Below are positions 1,239 to 64,000 of a DNA stretch of 64,000 bases, in pieces (the first letter of the stretch is position 1; each line of letters opens with the position of its first letter). The notes beneath the pieces are model-generated. The model was not told where the DNA came from, ran no database searches, and saw nothing but the letters and a program-made list of their open reading frames with translations. This DNA is from Candidatus Spongiisociaceae bacterium. GTDB lineage: Bacteria > Actinomycetota > Acidimicrobiia > Spongiisociales > Spongiisociaceae. The stretch covers positions 1,824,001-1,888,000 of the forward strand of contig CBDCOH010000002.1 of NCBI GenBank assembly GCA_965219685.1. Direction: 5' to 3'. Made by a program: the position numbers and the translations under genes.

Positions 1239-2105
1239 ATGGCGTCAGGAACCCTCCGCCTCGCCGTAGCGCAGCCACGGACGGTGGTGGAGCCTGACGC
1301 GGAGGTGAACGTTGCCCGGGCGGTCGAACTGGCCGCCCGGGCATCCACCCTGGGGGCGGACCTGATCCTGTTCCCCGAGGGATACCCCGGACCGGTCCTT
1401 GCCAAACCGAAGGACGACTACGAGGCGGGTCCGGCGATGGAGGCCGCGGCAGGGGAGCACGGCATAGGGATCTGCTGGAGCAGGATGGAGCTCTGTCGCG
1501 ACGGGAACCGCCGACTAGTGGTGTATGTCGTGGACAACCACGGTCGTCAGCTCATCCGCTACGAGCGGGCCCATCCCGCCACGCTGCCGCCCGACGAAAC
1601 CAGGGTCTGGGTCGCGCCGGGCGAGTCCTTGGCGTTCCTCGACCTCGATGGGGTAGGAGTTGGGATCGTGGTGTGCTCGGAGCTGTGGATCCCCGAACCG
1701 ACCCGGGTCCTCGCCCTGCAGGGCGCCGAGATCATCCTGTCACCGGCAGGCGGCGGTTTCACCTCGCTCACCGAGAACTGGCAGACGATCGTGCGGGCCA
1801 GGGCGATGGAGAACCTGTGCTACGTGGCGATGACCAACAACATCTGGCGGGACGAGGTGGGCGCGGCGATGATCGCCGGACCCGAGTACGTGGCGGTGAG
1901 TTCGGGGACCGAGGAGTTGTTGCTGGCGACCCTCGACCTCGACCGCGTCGAGTGGCTCAGGTCGAACGACGACTCGATGGTCGAGCCCAAGGGCTTCTCG
2001 TCCATCCCCGGCCTGCTCAGGGCCCGACGGCCGGAGCTGTACGAGGAGCTGGTCAAGCCGGGTACTGACCTCTACGACTTCCACACCCCTCCCCCGCAAC
2101 GGTGA
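1239..2105 (+). CDS. Carbon-nitrogen hydrolase (nitrilase superfamily)
   Basis: Motifs LILFPEG (Glu), VCSELWIPE (Cys) and RARAMEN. YERAH occupies the usual YxKxH position. Confidence 0.9.
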   Translation: MASGTLRLAVAQPRTVVEPDAEVNVARAVELAARASTLGADLILFPEGYPGPVLAKPKDDYEAGPAMEAAAGEHGIGICWSRMELCRDGNRRLVVYVVDNHGRQLIRYERAHPATLPPDETRVWVAPGESLAFLDLDGVGVGIVVCSELWIPEPTRVLALQGAEIILSPAGGGFTSLTENWQTIVRARAMENLCYVAMTNNIWRDEVGAAMIAGPEYVAVSSGTEELLLATLDLDRVEWLRSNDDSMVEPKGFSSIPGLLRARRPELYEELVKPGTDLYDFHTPPPQR

Positions 2106-3454
2106 AGGACCGCGGGATCCTGGTCCGAGGGGGATACGTCCTCACCTCTTCAACTCCGGAGATGATCGAGAACGGCGCGGTACGGGTCGTCGGCGAGTTG
2201 ATCGACGCGGTCGGGCCGTGGTCCGACCTGCGGGCTCGGCATCCCGACGACGAGGTCCACGGGGACCGCCACTCCATCATCACACCGGGATTCGTCAACA
2301 CCCACGGGCACTTCTCGGAGGCGTTGTTCACCGGAATCGCCGAGGACTACACCCTGGTGGAGTGGATCGAGGCGGTGATCAACCCCACCGCGCCCAATCA
2401 CGACTACGAGATGGCCTACGTGGGCACGCTCCTAGCCGGCATCCAGATGCTCCAGACCGGGATAACAGTCGCCAGCGACATGTACGTCTGCGACCCGGCA
2501 GACCGGCCCGTCACTCCCGGCGTGGTCCGGGCACTGGACGAGTTGGGCATGCGTGGGGTGGTCACATTCGGCGCTGCGGACCGTAGGGGCGCCCCGGTCC
2601 CCGCCATCCTCGAAGAGCATGCCGCCCTGCGGGAAGCGTGCGAGGCCAGCCGCCTGTCCAGTTTCCGGGTCGGGATCGCCCTCCTGGGTGCTCAGTCCGA
2701 GGCCCTGTTCGAGCAGTCCGTGAGGCTGGCGGCCGACCATGGAAGCCATATCCATCTCCACGAGGTCCGGGAGGAAGTCACCGCGATCCGAGCTGCGACC
2801 GGACGGACCCCGATCGAGCAGTGCGCCCGTCTGGGACTGTTCAAGGGGCCGACCATCGCCGCCCATTGCGTTTGGGTCGACGAGAACGACCGCGACATAC
2901 TGGCGGAGCATCAGGTGGGGGTCGCACACAACCCGGTCTCCAACATGATCCTCGCCTCCGGGGTCTGCCCGGTGCCGGCCCTGAGGCGCCTCGGTGTAGC
3001 CGTCGGCATCGGGGTCGACGGCCCCGCAAGCAACGACCGCCAGGACATGCTGGAGGCGATCAAGCTGGCCGTGTTACTGCAGAGGGTCGACCGGCTCCAA
3101 GCGACCGCCCTGTCCGCTCGGGACGCACTGGAGATGGCCACCCTCGAAGGTGCCCGTTCCCTGCGCCTCGACGACGAACTCGGCTCGATAGAACCCGGCA
3201 AGCAGGCCGACCTCGTGGTATTCGACGGCTCGTCCCCGGCGCTTGCCAACGTCCACGACCCATTCCAGAAAGTCGTCTACTGCGCCGGCCCCCGGGAGGT
3301 GTCCGACGTGTGGGTGGCCGGGCAGAGATCGGTGGTAAGTGGGGCAGTCACCCGGGTCGATGTGACTGACGTAGTGGAGCGATCACGTCCCCTCGCCCGG
3401 AAGCTGGCCCGACGAGCGGGAATCGGCGAGCATTCACTGCTGGCTCGGTCCTGA
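2102..3454 (+). CDS. Metal-dependent amidohydrolase/deaminase (MTA/SAH-guanine deaminase-like)
   Basis: Motifs PGFVNTHGH, HIHLHE, AHCV, HNPVSN, GVDG, GSIEPGKQADL. GTGA overlap with the upstream gene. Confidence 0.9.
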   Translation: MKDRGILVRGGYVLTSSTPEMIENGAVRVVGELIDAVGPWSDLRARHPDDEVHGDRHSIITPGFVNTHGHFSEALFTGIAEDYTLVEWIEAVINPTAPNHDYEMAYVGTLLAGIQMLQTGITVASDMYVCDPADRPVTPGVVRALDELGMRGVVTFGAADRRGAPVPAILEEHAALREACEASRLSSFRVGIALLGAQSEALFEQSVRLAADHGSHIHLHEVREEVTAIRAATGRTPIEQCARLGLFKGPTIAAHCVWVDENDRDILAEHQVGVAHNPVSNMILASGVCPVPALRRLGVAVGIGVDGPASNDRQDMLEAIKLAVLLQRVDRLQATALSARDALEMATLEGARSLRLDDELGSIEPGKQADLVVFDGSSPALANVHDPFQKVVYCAGPREVSDVWVAGQRSVVSGAVTRVDVTDVVERSRPLARKLARRAGIGEHSLLARS

Positions 3455-3564
3455 GCCGGCAGCCGAGCGGACCCGCTCGATCGATACACCCTTGCTCCTT
3501 CCTCATGGTGAAGCCTCCGACCATCCATGGAGAATATCGACTGATGCCGTTGTTGAACAAGACT

Positions 3565-61940: not shown

Positions 61941-63515
61941 GTGAGCCGCACATTGGTGATGGGAGATCCCCTCGTCGTCCTCGGCGATCCGTCCCCGGGA
62001 TACATCCGGGATGGCGCGCTCATCGTCGAAGGTCGCCGGATCGTACGAGTCGGATCGAGGCAGGATCTTGAGGGTCTCGGTCCTTTCGATCACCTGGTCG
62101 GGTCTCCCCGCCATGCCGTCCTGCCCGGATTCATCAATGGTCACTACCACTCGGGTTCGGCCCTGAACCGGGGAATGCCCCAGTACATCTTCGAGCGGGC
62201 CAACGTCCATGTGCACGCCATGTGGAGCGCGGTCACCGAGGAAGACCTCTACTACGCCGTGCTGGCCAACGTCATCAACGACGTTCGAGGAGGCCAGACC
62301 GGGTTCGTCGACCTCAACTACGGCCGGTCCGGCCTGCCCAACTTCGGGTACGACGCCATCCTGCAGGCTTACGGGGACCTCGGGGTGCGGGTGGCCCTCG
62401 GGGTGGTCACCAGGGATCGGAACACCCTGGTCCATGCGGACGATGAGTCCTTCCTCGCCACGCTTCCCCCGGATCTGGCCGCGCGGGTGCGCGCCTCGAC
62501 GATGGGTTACGCATGGCCGGTCGACCAGGTGTTCGCCGCCTACCGGGACCTGGTCGCTCGCTGGGACTACCGGGAGGGCCGTATCCGGGTCCTGCTCGCA
62601 CCCGACTGGACCCCGGCCTGCTCGGACGAACTCTACGTCCAGAACCGGCGCCTGGCCGACGAGTTCGGAACGGGGATCATGACGCACGTGCTCGAGACCC
62701 GTTCCGAGATGATGTACGCGCTGGAGAGCGACGGCAAGACCGCCATGCGCCGGCTGGCGGATCTCGAAGTGCTGGGACCCGATGTCTCGTGCTCCCACTT
62801 CGTGTGGGCAACCGACGAGGACATCTCGATACTCGCCGATACGGGGGCGGTCGCGGTCAACAACCCGGGTTCCAACCTCCGCCTGAGCACGGGGATAGCC
62901 CGGGTGAGGGACATCATGGACCGTGGCGGGCGGGTGTGCTTCGGTACCGATAACATCTCTTTTTCGGACTCCGGCGACTTCTTCCAGGAGCTCCGCCTCG
63001 CCGCCTACCTGCAGAGAACCCCGGGATTGCTGGAGGTAGGTCGCCTCGATTCGGAGGCCGTGCTGCGAGCTGCGGCGCGCAACGGCGCCCGGGCGATCCG
63101 CTTCGAGTCCGAACTCGGTTCGCTGAGCGTGGGGAAGGAGGCCGACCTGGTCGTCTTGAGCCGCGACCGCCTGTTCTGGCCGGAGGAACGTTACGCCTCC
63201 GCCCCGCCCCTGGACGTCATCCTCGACCGAGCGTCGGCCGCCGACGTGGCGTCCATAATGGTTGCCGGAGAGGTCGTGTTCGACGATGGCGAATTCACCC
63301 GGATCCCTGAGAGCCGGATCCGGGACCACGTTGCCGAAGCGGCTCTGCGCATCATGGGCAACGATCCCGACCCGGACTCGGTGCGCCTGGGCTGGGAGGT
63401 GGACCCCTACGTACTCGATTTCTACCGCCGGTGGGCCCGGACGCCGCTCGAGCCGGCCGCGGTGTACAACGCCAAGCATCCGCCCCCAGGCGGGGATGGT
63501 TCGAGAGAGGAGTGA
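61941..63515 (+). CDS. Metal-dependent amidohydrolase/deaminase
   Basis: Motifs PGFINGHYH, THVLE, SHFVW, NPGSN and GTD. aaaggagg RBS upstream. Confidence 0.9.
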   Translation: MSRTLVMGDPLVVLGDPSPGYIRDGALIVEGRRIVRVGSRQDLEGLGPFDHLVGSPRHAVLPGFINGHYHSGSALNRGMPQYIFERANVHVHAMWSAVTEEDLYYAVLANVINDVRGGQTGFVDLNYGRSGLPNFGYDAILQAYGDLGVRVALGVVTRDRNTLVHADDESFLATLPPDLAARVRASTMGYAWPVDQVFAAYRDLVARWDYREGRIRVLLAPDWTPACSDELYVQNRRLADEFGTGIMTHVLETRSEMMYALESDGKTAMRRLADLEVLGPDVSCSHFVWATDEDISILADTGAVAVNNPGSNLRLSTGIARVRDIMDRGGRVCFGTDNISFSDSGDFFQELRLAAYLQRTPGLLEVGRLDSEAVLRAAARNGARAIRFESELGSLSVGKEADLVVLSRDRLFWPEERYASAPPLDVILDRASAADVASIMVAGEVVFDDGEFTRIPESRIRDHVAEAALRIMGNDPDPDSVRLGWEVDPYVLDFYRRWARTPLEPAAVYNAKHPPPGGDGSREE

Positions 63516-63517
63516 GC

Positions 63518-64000
63518 ATGGCCTTCGTGGTGGATTGCCACATGCACATCATGGAGCCGGACTGGAACCCGATGAACGTCTCCTCCGGGATGGCCGAGTC
63601 CTGGGCCCGGCAGGTCCGCTGGTACGACCCGCCCAAGTCCGATCCCGAGTACTTCGCGGAGGCATGGAAGGTGTCCGCCGACGGCAACGGTGATAAGGCG
63701 GTGGCGCGTATGGACGAGGCCGGGGTGGACGCGTCGGTGATGATGCCCATGGACCACGGCGTCGGCCTTGGCGAGGAAGGCGTCATACCCATAGCCGAGA
63801 AGAACCGGCTCTGCGCCCAAGCCACCAAACGACACCCCGGACGGCTCTACACCTTCTGCGGAGTAGACCCCCGACGACCCAACGCCCTCGAAATCCTCAC
63901 CACCGCGGTAGACCAATGGGGCGCCATCGGCCTCAAGCTCTACCCCACCAACGGCTTCTACCCCGACGACGAAAACGTCGTCTACCCCCTATACCGGTTC
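63518..64000 (+). CDS. Amidohydrolase_2 family protein, 3'-truncated by the window edge
   Basis: Translated by eye: MAFVVDCHMH...MDEAGVD...HPGRL...GLKLYP...FYPDD...YPLY, open to the end of the window. Confidence 0.85.
   Translation, partial: MAFVVDCHMHIMEPDWNPMNVSSGMAESWARQVRWYDPPKSDPEYFAEAWKVSADGNGDKAVARMDEAGVDASVMMPMDHGVGLGEEGVIPIAEKNRLCAQATKRHPGRLYTFCGVDPRRPNALEILTTAVDQWGAIGLKLYPTNGFYPDDENVVYPLYRF

Follow-up and report, generated by a model that had tools for sequence, protein, structure and literature searches.

A 64,000-nucleotide stretch of the chromosome of a Candidatus Spongiisociaceae bacterium (C2:1824001-1888000, here called the window) consists of at least three separable modules and is not one conserved 60-kb unit. 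Two of these, M1 (genes g01-g03 and g14-g25) and M3 (g39-g51, g55-g59 and g63-g64), are undescribed orphan modules; literature searches of open-access papers and preprints found no paper that describes either. M1 stands out, with five poorly understood families and an operon that crosses phylum boundaries. On balance, we lean towards reading the window as a catabolic island of at least three modules in which M1 would use hydrolysis alone to dismantle a guanine-like fused base of the 2-amino-4-oxo-pyrimidine type.

The Window Is a Juxtaposition of Separable Modules

The source genome (G000) comprises 4.42 Mb in two contigs and is 96.7% complete, with 5.9% contamination; the G+C content of the chromosome is 65.3%, and that of the window varies between 0.60 and 0.69, with lower values at inserted islands. 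Sixty-four genes (g01-g64) were called with a codon-usage model trained on the long open reading frames (ORFs) of the window. All 64 proteins were scanned against Pfam, and 60 of them had a match at E<=1e-3. Thirty were also scanned against the curated models of NCBIfam, where only the mutase g47 exceeded a curated cut-off; the five TRZ/ATZ amidohydrolases, g25, the Mo-hydroxylase, the CoA-transferase and the carboxyltransferase lay far under the equivalog thresholds.

A sequence-only reading of the same DNA had listed a large set of catabolic genes, and at the level of families every item of that inventory is present. The nine amidohydrolases are g03, g17, g22, g25, g36, g55 and g63 (Amidohydro_1) together with g35 and g64 (Amidohydro_2). 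The Mo-hydroxylase has its large, small and FAD subunits in g37, g38 and g29, the Rieske oxygenase is g34 (Rieske/VanA_C), and the isochorismatase is g24. NMT1-type uptake is represented by the binding protein g33 with an ABC ATPase and permease (g31-g33), the second binding protein being g01. The enamidase g22 does lie beside a DUF1185 gene, 10 bp from g23 (AA_synth/DUF1185). The lower CoA genes comprise the mutase g46/g47, the Glyoxalase_4 proteins g51 and g60, the carboxyltransferase and biotinyl proteins g56 and g58, and the ligase-type proteins g61, g57 and g59; the Sdh-like complex is g26-g28. Some of the names reach less far: the nitrilase (the CN_hydrolase match of g02) and the lactonase (the metallo-beta-lactamase fold of g62) are assigned by superfamily membership only, and the NicX/M29-fold proteins are g45, with a weak match to NicX (7cn3, E 7.9e-4), and its distant paralogue g40. 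Where that reading had noted translational coupling, 4-nt overlaps (NTGA) occur in 22 out of 49 same-strand neighbour pairs. We also agree that no single described pathway fits, given that only g47 passes an NCBIfam cut-off and that the literature yielded no description. The first position listed in that reading, 1239, misses g01, whose ORF begins upstream of the window.

What did not survive is the proposal of one supercluster of more than 60 kb, because the synteny of all modules is kept in only two of the five same-genus genomes, and in the other three the markers of M1 and M3 are 556-599 kb apart. The distance between g25 and g45 is 24 kb here, 23 kb in G007 and 59 kb in G002, as against 556 kb in G004, 599 kb in G005 and 592 kb in G006. 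G007 has the gene order of the window from g02 to g63, and G002 has it from g01 to g64, with insertions of about 16, 19 and 20 kb at g28/g29, g35/g36 and g51/g55. In G004-G006, the ABC genes, g01, in some cases g02, g03 and g13-g25 lie together at one place. Away from M1, G005 and G006 keep g64-g63, g59-g56 and g51-g41 together, while of the M3 block G004 retains only g43-g48, g50 and g51. Of the five same-genus genomes searched, only G002 and G007 yielded orthologues of g34, g37 and g62. A g26 orthologue was found neither in G004-G006 nor in two further genomes, from different genera of the family, and all five carry only paralogues of 28-29% identity. These marker distances and region maps lead us to conclude that the 60-kb arrangement is a juxtaposition in one subclade. 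It is not an assembly artefact, since two other same-genus assemblies have the same order.

The surroundings of the window bear on how such proximity should be read. Five of the 21 TRZ/ATZ-type paralogues of the genome fall inside these 64 kb, where about 0.3 would be expected under an even spread. On a larger scale, a 0.5-Mb stretch of the chromosome (1.8-2.3 Mb, 11% of its length) holds 66 of the 142 members of ten catabolic families (TRZ/ATZ, Mo-hydroxylase L/M/S, Rieske, hydantoinase-like, Amidohydro_2, NMT1, LLM and CoA-transferase III). The genome as a whole has about 30 Mo-hydroxylase large subunits and 10 Rieske proteins of the VanA type. Because the window lies in this region, co-location alone is weak evidence for one pathway.

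For these reasons we regard it as unlikely that the whole 60 kb encodes one co-regulated pathway, in which the Rieske oxygenase, Mo-hydroxylase and deaminases would form an upper part, the Sdh-like complex would reduce the ring, M1 would open it and M3 would be the lower part, all acting on a single class of substituted pyridines or modified nucleobases. Such a pathway would account for the order shared with G007 and G002 and for the many 4-nt overlaps inside units, and its chemistry is possible, a chain from Mo-hydroxylase through reductase to enamidase being that of nicotinate fermentation. It is difficult to square with the separation of M1 and M3 in three of the five same-genus genomes, with the missing orthologues of g34, g37 and g62 in those three and of g26 there and in the two other-genus genomes, with the 16-20 kb inserts between units in G002, or with the rarity of the Sdh-like complex and of Mo-hydroxylase subunits beside M1 elsewhere (2 and 0-1, respectively, of the 43 loci described below); and, with 66 of 142 family members in 0.5 Mb, proximity comes cheaply. 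Where catabolic paralogues concentrate in this way, proximity over tens of kilobases should not be taken as one pathway.

M1 Is an Old and Widely Shared Operon

M1 was found in all seven same-genus genomes searched, and g25 in 14 of 26 relatives, G000 included. A wider scan, with one genome per species, gave 125 pattern matches, of which 72 were confirmed and 69 were loci encoding a g25 relative. These 69 are labelled Acidimicrobiia, Streptomyces, Actinocorallia, Spirillospora, Actinomadura, Acidobacteriota and Alphaproteobacteria, with one metagenome-assembled genome (MAG) of the Cellvibrionaceae, and the closest relatives of g25 are MAGs labelled Acidimicrobiia, 'Candidatus Spongiisociaceae' and 'Candidatus Spongiisocius'. 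No locus from Clostridia is among them, in a scan that reaches close relatives only, and a plasmid collection contained no g25 relative at E<=1e-100. Across the listed taxa g25 is 72-93% identical; the identity between phyla, 72-78%, is unusually high conservation.

To describe the composition of M1 we ran the 64 window proteins by tblastn on these loci, set aside L067 and L070 as weak, and restricted the gene counts to the 43 loci whose 10-kb flanks were complete. The gene g24 was present in all 43, followed by g22 (38), g21 (36), g23 (35), g20 (32), a deaminase of the g03/g17 type (32), g19 (31), g18 (24), g16 (14) and g15 (11), and the full set of eight genes from g25 to g18 in 20. Mo-hydroxylase subunits occurred in 0-1 of the 43. 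The conserved core thus contains no oxygenase and no reductase (69 loci mapped, 43 counted). In eight loci (L017, L018, L022, L023 and L044-L047) g01, g03 and two ABC genes sit inside the operon, joined in five by g02, implying that the first operon of the window (g01-g03) belongs with g14-g25; L018, L023, L044, L045 and L047 are examples from the Actinomycetota with the whole g01-g02-g03 unit. M1 loci of other lineages have a canonical NMT1 binding protein in place of g01, and GntR genes flank M1 in other phyla. We conclude that M1 is an old, widely shared operon.

M1 has accessory neighbours in other lineages: 11 loci have a CDA-type deaminase upstream of g25, nine have HDAC-type amidohydrolases, L039 has an adenosine deaminase, and aldehyde dehydrogenases occur as well. 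In an Acidobacteriota MAG (L051), a urease alpha subunit (L051:2565-4283) and a ureB antisense RNA match adjoin M1, which is consistent with urea as a product. Five reduced loci (L035, L038, L040, L042 and L059, from Streptomyces, Marinitenerispora, Spirillospora and Actinomadura) are limited to g25 and g24 with a g03-type deaminase and a distant aminotransferase; KAS III, acyl-CoA dehydrogenase and PGM1-type ATP-grasp genes adjoin this set in L038.

The Enzymes Encoded by M1

The genes of M1 in the window are as follows.

g01: 2..1234 (3' part), plus strand; M1 lipoprotein substrate-binding protein, with an ORF from C2:1822985 to 1825234
g02: 1239..2105, plus strand; nitrilase-superfamily CN_hydrolase (Pfam E 1.3e-26)
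g03: 2102..3454, plus strand; TRZ/ATZ-type deaminase (Amidohydro_1 E 2.8e-55)
g14: 9627..10520, minus strand; GntR regulator at the end of the M1 operon (Pfam E 1.3e-15)
g15-g16: 10517..13059, minus strand; O-methyltransferase and FAD amine-oxidase/CrtI-like oxidoreductase (Pfam, NCBIfam), lineage-specific additions to M1
g17: 13056..14444, minus strand; TRZ/ATZ-type deaminase (Amidohydro_1 E 2.9e-55)
g18: 14441..15700, minus strand; class-III omega-aminotransferase (Pfam E 2.1e-108)
g19: 15697..16368, minus strand; class II aldolase-fold protein (Pfam E 6.5e-26)
g20: 16398..17429, minus strand; stand-alone ArcS-C1/DUF5591-like protein of 343 aa (Pfam DUF5591, PF17884)
g21: 17448..18101, minus strand; DUF1989 protein (Pfam E 5.8e-40)
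g22: 18224..19411, minus strand; enamidase homologue (2vun_A, E 2.9e-104)
g23: 19422..20003, minus strand; AA_synth/DUF1185 protein (Pfam E 1.3e-55)
g24: 20000..20755, minus strand; isochorismatase-family cysteine hydrolase (Pfam E 1.9e-27)
g25: 20758..22431, minus strand; cyclic amidohydrolase of 557 aa, a distinct subfamily (L-hydantoinase 1gkr, E 1.3e-49)

The product of g25 also matches 1nfg (E 2.5e-39) and falls well short of the D-hydantoinase model TIGR02033 (185.1 bits vs a cut-off of 393.25). Of 67 homologues, 65 have ExH (D-[STP]-E-[AS]-H-P-G-[CH], of the type DSEAHPGC) in place of HxH; this motif was placed by inspection, and we take its position to be that of the first HxH metal motif. 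The segments FKLY, HIHPEN, QHCT and GSDH are conserved in the family and may supply the carbamylated Lys, the two His and the Asp that act as metal ligands. Its partner g24 is found in every full locus and adjoins g25 in the gene orders listed. The nearest solved structures are N-carbamoylsarcosine amidohydrolases (E 1.8e-31 and 2.4e-27), and in an alignment of 65 homologues the Asp, Lys and Cys positions are kept in VIDVNY, KxKPSA and SGCVR, with one or two variants; these three residues are, we assume, the catalytic triad.

The two deaminases, g03 and g17, are paralogues (E 2e-118). Like g36, g55 and g63 they score below every named TRZ/ATZ deaminase cut-off (for g03, 296 bits vs 540), and the models found under cut-off for g03 are those of TRZ/ATZ, 8-oxoguanine deaminase and guanine deaminase. 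The putative second ring opener, g22, aligns with the enamidase 2vun_A over its full length (residues 1-380 with 1-383), and 50 of 51 homologues have DSHCH or DSHVH at the HxH metal motif, which we take to be the metal-binding motif of the amidohydrolases.

Among the remaining enzymes, g23 belongs to DUF1185, whose fold resembles that of Bacillus chorismate mutase (PMC2954203); that structure paper offers no usable functional context. The DUF1989 protein g21 reaches 108.8 bits against the UAAP2 model (cut-off 284.7) and matches 3oru in the PDB (E 1.1e-22) and trimethylamine N-oxide (TMAO) demethylase (E 2.3e-9). The best NCBIfam match of g19 is 3,4-dihydroxyphthalate decarboxylase, at 57 bits against a cut-off of 200, so that g19 is a probable decarboxylase of (hetero)aromatic carboxylates. 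DpdL, a proposed phage decarboxylase of 7-carboxy-7-deazaguanine, was considered as a link to g19 and discarded, being an unrelated QueD paralogue. For g18, acetylornithine and putrescine aminotransferase models were matched under cut-off, and g02 comes closest to the NCBIfam model of deaminated glutathione amidase (78.8 bits vs a cut-off of 355).

The binding protein g01, about 750 aa long with a signal/lipobox, has no Pfam or NCBIfam match; hhalign aligns it with NMT1 binding proteins at a probability of 96.8% (E 2.5e-10). It contains two in-frame tandem copies of a 347-aa unit (1041 nt), for which the predicted structure has a mean pLDDT of 40.5. Over 1028 nt there is no difference between the copies here (100% identity) and there are four differences between those of G002, although the two genomes diverge from each other by about 7%; two copies of the unit are also present in G005 and G006, and one in G004. 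The pattern looks like concerted evolution of a duplicated binding domain, or may be an assembly artefact. With g01, g20 and g40 as queries, phmmer found no significant match among solved structures.

g20 Carries the C1 Motif and Fold of Archaeosine Synthase

The motif of g20, PCTKFKPYSTSREH, conforms to PC-X3-KPY-X2-S-X2-H, and the P, C, KPY, S and H of this pattern do not vary in any of the 16 sequences aligned. This is the motif given for the catalytic C1 domain of archaeosine synthase, ArcS (PMC10516641). The predicted model of g20 (pLDDT 91.8) superimposes on the DUF5591 protein AF0587 (2q07_A) with Z 11.2 and an rmsd of 2.5 over 137 residues at 24% identity, the next match having Z 5.7. 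Foldseek also links it to 2q07 (probability 0.99, E 0.02), and a profile search aligned its motif to that of AF0587 (E 0.0017). Among 14 control genomes, only three archaea had DUF5591; small bacterial DUF5591 clusters are listed in a protein atlas.

ArcS acts on preQ0 by adding an amine to its nitrile (PMC11298593), and a phage form that consists of C1 only makes a formamidine (PMC10516641). With its exact C1 motif and AF0587 fold, g20 resembles these proteins, and it is C1-only like ArcS2. Unlike them it is bacterial, and the operon around it is catabolic and includes importer genes and a GntR gene; it has no TGT-like N-terminal or PUA domain, DUF5591 being its sole Pfam match, and no dpdA or preQ0-synthesis gene is near it. 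It probably acts on a free base or small molecule rather than on tRNA or DNA.

The sequence-only reading had seen an N-heterocycle catabolic cluster and proposed substituted pyridines, modified nucleobases or both as substrates. The first part of this stands, in that the window encodes enzymes of catabolic type for nitrogen-rich rings, and the suggestion of modified nucleobases or deazapurines gains a lead from the ArcS C1 motif and fold of g20. The genome itself encodes a TGT (C2:315222-316277) and only a marginal, 21.9-bit match to QueC. A TGT without a convincing QueC suggests that the organism depends on imported 7-deazaguanines, a dependence compatible with a deazaguanine substrate for M1, without deciding the matter.

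A Hydrolytic Route Proposed for M1

A creatinine-type triad, a second ring opener, a decarboxylase, proteins suited to amidines and enamines, and the lack of any oxygenase or reductase in the conserved core would together suit a fused 2-amino-4-oxo-pyrimidine. As the most likely substrates we propose, from gene content, either a 7-deazaguanine (preQ0, preQ1 or queuine-type) or a purine (guanine, xanthine), two versions between which we make no choice. In outline, a TRZ/ATZ deaminase (g03/g17) would convert the cyclic guanidine to a cyclic ureide, the ExH-type enzyme g25 would open the ureide ring to a ureido-carboxylate, and the N-carbamoylsarcosine-amidase-like g24 would take off the carbamoyl group. 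The product of g24 might then be decarboxylated by the class II aldolase-fold protein g19, after which g23 (with its chorismate-mutase/RidA-like fold), g21 or both would remove the enamine or amidine nitrogen. The enamidase homologue g22 would open the remaining lactam to an aldehyde-acid, whose amine and aldehyde ends the aminotransferase g18 and an aldehyde dehydrogenase could process. Finally, g20 with g02 and g21 may act on a nitrile, formamidine or carboxamide. We would put the chances of this fused-base mechanism at close to even, or slightly short of it.

In the 7-deazaguanine version, the side chain (nitrile, formamidine, carboxamide or aminomethyl) would become a carboxylate through the action of g20, g21 and g02, or else of g18 with an aldehyde dehydrogenase, and would be removed through decarboxylation by g19. 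The pyrimidine ring would be removed by g03/g17, g25 and g24, g23 would aid the conversion of the aminopyrrole to a pyrrolinone, and g22 would open the pyrrolinone to succinate semialdehyde; every M1 gene would have a role. In the guanine/xanthine version, the same enzymes would reproduce the clostridial sequence to formiminoglycine, with g20 and g21 acting on the formamidine.

That clostridial pathway, from xanthine to formiminoglycine, was reportedly described biochemically in the 1950s. A 2012 paper gives purinolytic clostridia as converting xanthine to 4-ureido-5-imidazolecarboxylate, then to aminoimidazole, imidazolone and formiminoglycine, by genes that were unknown at that time (PMC3519856). 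The order of steps proposed for M1 is the same: ring opening, decarbamoylation, decarboxylation, deamination, second opening and handling of the formamidine. The comparison is by reactions only, the genes being unknown in 2012, and differs in that the aminotransferase and aldehyde dehydrogenase of M1 have no role there. It would be a further step to identify M1 as a complete hydrolytic route for fused bases of the guanine type, independent of oxygen, that is either the first catabolic pathway for 7-deazaguanines (preQ0, preQ1 or queuine-derived bases), in which a bacterial ArcS-like enzyme would act on the nitrile or formamidine side chain, or the missing set of genes from xanthine to formiminoglycine; this we put forward tentatively, as a doubtful extension of the reading.

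Several observations weigh against the proposed route or limit it. The replacement of the first His of HxH means that the chemistry of g25 may differ from that of hydantoinases, and in g02 and five orthologues an Arg stands in for the expected Lys of the catalytic Glu-Lys-Cys triad (RY-x-R-[AS]-HP, aligned by inspection; a weaker paralogous match to g02 retains RYRK). The DUF5591 match of g20 is marginal, at 26.5 bits against a cut-off of 26 over profile positions 1-44 of 150 (25.7 bits in a whole-genome scan, 28.8 with the neighbours in frame). The link to 7-deazaguanines comes from g20 alone, which is missing in 11 of the 43 full loci, and because 7-deazaguanines are scarce in nature, a large dedicated pathway for them would be surprising. 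No preQ1 or other riboswitch was detected with Rfam in six M1 loci, which gave only tRNA and the ureB antisense RNA; in the window, too, no riboswitch reached the Rfam gathering threshold. The purine version, for its part, has no clear role for the aminotransferase and the aldehyde dehydrogenase. The reduced loci of the Streptomyces type hint at a biosynthetic use of the same enzymes. Since flanks extend only 10 kb per side, gene absences among the 43 loci are lower bounds on presence, and related genomes among them are non-independent samples. No RNA run is among the listed sequencing runs that hold the stretch; the DNA runs are labelled as sponge, coral or marine metagenomes. Lastly, the order common to G000, G002 and G007 leaves room for a functional link between the modules in that subclade.

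Three other substrates for M1 have to be weighed against a fused pyrimidine. A monocyclic guanidine or ureide, such as creatinine or a derivative of (methyl)cytosine or uracil, would need a deaminase, a hydantoinase-type opening and an N-carbamoyl amidase, and the other M1 genes would belong to side branches. The known creatinine deaminase route uses creatinine deaminase, N-methylhydantoinase and N-carbamoylsarcosine amidase, and M1, with its deaminase, cyclic ureide hydrolase and isochorismatase-family N-carbamoyl amidase, mirrors this three-step logic. The minimal loci, which keep only g25, g24, the deaminase and the aminotransferase, point the same way, as do an aminotransferase and aldehyde dehydrogenase suited to beta-alanine from pyrimidines and the occurrence of the stretch in sponge, coral and marine metagenomes. 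Yet the ring opener of the creatinine route is of the ATP-dependent HyuAB type, unlike the metal-dependent ExH enzyme g25, and five further conserved enzymes (g22, g21, g23, g20 and g19, in 38, 36, 35, 32 and 31 of the 43 loci) are without a counterpart or a role; rings of the uracil type, moreover, need a reductase, which the core lacks. We therefore consider a monocyclic substrate improbable. An oxidative pyrimidine route, made up of uracil dehydrogenase, barbiturase and ureidomalonase, was also considered as a joiner of all modules and is not favoured, as it leaves g19-g23 unexplained. A role in salvaging or degrading the pyrimidine of thiamine (hydroxymethylpyrimidine, HMP; aminomethyl-pyrimidine; or the formyl derivative of the latter) is suggested by the NMT1/ThiY-type binding proteins, g01 being divergent NMT1-like and other M1 loci having canonical NMT1 proteins. 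An aminotransferase, an aldehyde dehydrogenase and a decarboxylase could trim an aminomethyl side chain, and the HDAC-type amidohydrolases of nine loci could deformylate. NMT1-type proteins, however, bind many unrelated ligands, these compounds are scarce, and the chemistry of g25 and g24 fits poorly, since the 2-methylpyrimidine ring is no cyclic ureide; this role is highly improbable.

A pyridine pathway of the nicotinate or 6-hydroxynicotinate type, in which the enamidase opens a tetrahydro-oxo-pyridine carboxylate, seems quite improbable to us. We assume that it would resemble either the fermentation of Eubacterium barkeri or the aerobic route of Azorhizobium. With the former, M1 shares the full-length enamidase homologue g22, and the window has a Mo-hydroxylase and a B12-dependent mutase, the Mo-hydroxylase also occurring beside g25 in L037 and L056; g24, moreover, shares its family with nicotinamidase and maleamate amidase. 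The mutase, however, is of the acyl-CoA type (MM_CoA_mutase) and not a 2-methyleneglutarate mutase, no gene of the 6-hydroxynicotinate reductase type is in the core, and no other family of the familiar nicotinate-fermentation gene list is among the Pfam results of the 64 proteins. Almost all M1 loci lack a Mo-hydroxylase, and a pyridine substrate would leave unexplained why M1 has a second ring opener, g25, always paired with the decarbamoylase-like g24, and why it has the TRZ/ATZ deaminase, DUF1989 and g20; DUF1185 is a further addition relative to the E. barkeri cluster. The nic cluster of Pseudomonas putida (NicAB, NicC, NicX, NicD, NicF and NicE) is another partial match. Shared with it are g45 and g40, as distant members of the NicX/M29 superfamily with an aligned H-x-D, g24 as a member of the NicF family, and a Mo-hydroxylase. 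The first NicX His aligns to a Glu in g45, and the window has its NicX-like genes in one module and its NicF-like gene in another. The families to which we take NicC (flavin monooxygenase), NicD (alpha/beta hydrolase) and NicE (maleate isomerase) to belong are absent from the Pfam results of the 64 proteins; the FAD proteins of the window are the CrtI-like oxidase g16, the SdhA-like g26 and the CoxM-type g29.

M3 Is a Second Conserved Orphan Module

The second orphan module, M3, comprises the following genes.

g39-g40: 37498..39466, g39 on the plus and g40 on the minus strand; SDR and M29/NicX-superfamily paralogue of g45 (Pfam), at the edge of M3
g41-g51 (M3 core): 39580..51365, plus strand (Pfam); zinc-dependent alcohol dehydrogenase (Zn-ADH), aldehyde dehydrogenase (ALDH), double rhodanese, M20 and NicX/M29-like protein (g41-g45), then B12-binding subunit, acyl-CoA mutase, family III CoA-transferase, M20, F420-type luciferase-like oxidoreductase and epimerase-like Glyoxalase_4 (g46-g51)
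g55: 53755..55161, minus strand; TRZ/ATZ-type amidohydrolase (Pfam E 2e-58)
g56-g59: 55182..59000, minus strand; carboxyltransferase, SucD-like protein, biotinyl carrier and SucC-like ATP-grasp protein (Pfam)
g63-g64: 61956..64000, plus strand; TRZ/ATZ-like amidohydrolase of 519 aa and an Amidohydro_2 protein running off the window (Pfam)

The marker g45 was found in all seven other genomes of the genus, whereas a search of 18 more genomes from the wider family and order did not find it. In a sample of 401 Actinomycetota genomes, 27 had a g45 relative (five of the 27 are flagged unpublished, all five being weak matches), and orthologues of 65-69% identity occur in three genomes of one other actinobacterial family. 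Two of these three, G343 and G053, have the order g44-g51, g41, g42, g55, g63, Amidohydro_2 and ABC genes at 48-71% identity, with 65% identical orthologues of g55 beside the module. This recurrence of the block in another family makes M3 a second conserved orphan module. Its outer parts travel with it: g39 and g40 adjoin it in G006, g56-g59 in G005 and G006, and g63-g64 in G005, G006, G343 and G053.

The mutase g47 scores 652.9 bits against TIGR00641 (cut-off 303.8), with g46 as its B12-binding subunit (E 9e-27). By comparison, g56 reaches 297 bits of the 999 set for its MmdA-like model and the SucC-like g59 160 of 370. The weak match of g45 to NicX extends over 197 residues; of the H, H and D positions aligned, which we take to be the Fe(II) ligands of NicX, H-L-D is aligned and the His of 'ISHIGWGL' aligns to Glu. 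The distant paralogue g40 matches g45 at E 4e-7. No biotin carboxylase gene is in the window, and g56-g59 could be a decarboxylase, a transcarboxylase or an unusual ATP-grasp partner for biotin.

The simplest reading of these families is a route from a branched acid to succinyl-CoA. The hydrolases (two of TRZ/ATZ type, two M20 and one or two M29/NicX-like) would strip nitrogen, and a branched C4-C5 acid (for example of the methylmalonate type) would pass through CoA transfer, an epimerase-like protein and the B12 mutase to succinyl-CoA. The branched acyl-CoA end point proposed in the earlier reading is thus plausible for M3 alone, as deduced from its genes, and not for the window as a whole. 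With the methylmalonyl-CoA pathway, M3 and its companion genes share the TIGR00641 mutase, two Glyoxalase_4 proteins, the carboxyltransferase and biotinyl carrier, SucCD-like proteins and a CaiB-type CoA-transferase. They differ in being extra copies, with 30-54% identical paralogues elsewhere in the genome, in scoring far under the equivalog cut-offs for every counterpart except the mutase, in lacking a biotin carboxylase within the window and in being embedded among TRZ/ATZ, M20 and M29-like hydrolases.

Subclade-Specific Units and Variable Islands

The rest of the window consists of units found only in the closest subclade, two variable islands, one neighbour of M1 and the transporter gene g30.

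Variable island 1: 3505-8231; Phd/PIN pair, F420H2 quinone-reductase-like gene, AbiEii fragment, ArsR, two glyoxalase-fold genes and a P-loop gene (Pfam)
g13: 8285..9271, minus strand; MscS channel (Pfam), a neighbour of M1 within the genus
g26-g28: 22559..25409, minus strand; flavoprotein, Fe-S and cytochrome b subunits of an Sdh/Frd-like complex (Pfam)
g29: 25541..26446, plus strand; FAD (CoxM-type) subunit of the Mo-hydroxylase (Pfam E 2.7e-38)
g30: 26520..27755, minus strand; MFS transporter (Pfam E 4.5e-32)
g31-g35: 28126..32895, plus strand; ABC ATPase, permease, NMT1 binding protein, Rieske/VanA-type oxygenase and Amidohydro_2 (Pfam)
g36-g38: 32981..37452, minus strand; TRZ/ATZ-type amidohydrolase, Mo-hydroxylase large subunit and 2Fe-2S small subunit (Pfam)
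Variable island 2: 51715-53725; AAA_14/DUF4143 ATPase split in two ORFs, and a PIN fragment (Pfam)
g60-g62: 58997..61876, minus strand; Glyoxalase_4, AMP-binding CoA ligase and metallo-beta-lactamase-fold hydrolase (Pfam), subclade-specific

The flavoprotein g26 scores 554 bits against a TfrA-like model (cut-off 718), and the two M1 loci with an Sdh-like set beside them belong to the closest subclade. A housekeeping succinate dehydrogenase was considered and rejected, because G004-G006, of the same genus, have no orthologue and only a 28-29% paralogue, which also implies that the complex is accessory; within its own genome the flavoprotein has a paralogue of 26% identity. The large subunit g37 is XdhA-like (558 bits vs a cut-off of 780), with orthologues of 81-83% identity in two of the five same-genus genomes, and the g34 orthologues, again in two of the five, are 91-93% identical. 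We regard the Sdh-like, Rieske/ABC, Mo-hydroxylase and g60-g62 units as recent additions that may widen the range of substrates. The channel gene g13 is probably unrelated to M1.

Both islands lie outside any module, at module junctions. Island 1 is mostly absent at this position in G002 and G004, and G007 keeps g04, g05 and g12; a second copy of its Phd/PIN pair, 79% identical, is present at C2:2204136. Island 2 is absent at the junction in G007, and about 20 kb stand there instead in G002.

Implications

If the reading proposed for M1 is true, it would provide functions for five families, so far known mainly from structures or as DUFs, namely DUF5591, DUF1989, DUF1185, the ExH cyclic amidohydrolases and the enamidase-like lactamases. 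It would also define a new catabolic pathway of the nucleobase type in several phyla and the first catabolic role for a bacterial archaeosine-synthase-like domain. For the sponge symbiosis, it would point to specific nitrogen-rich metabolites of the host or its community as food for Acidimicrobiia symbionts.

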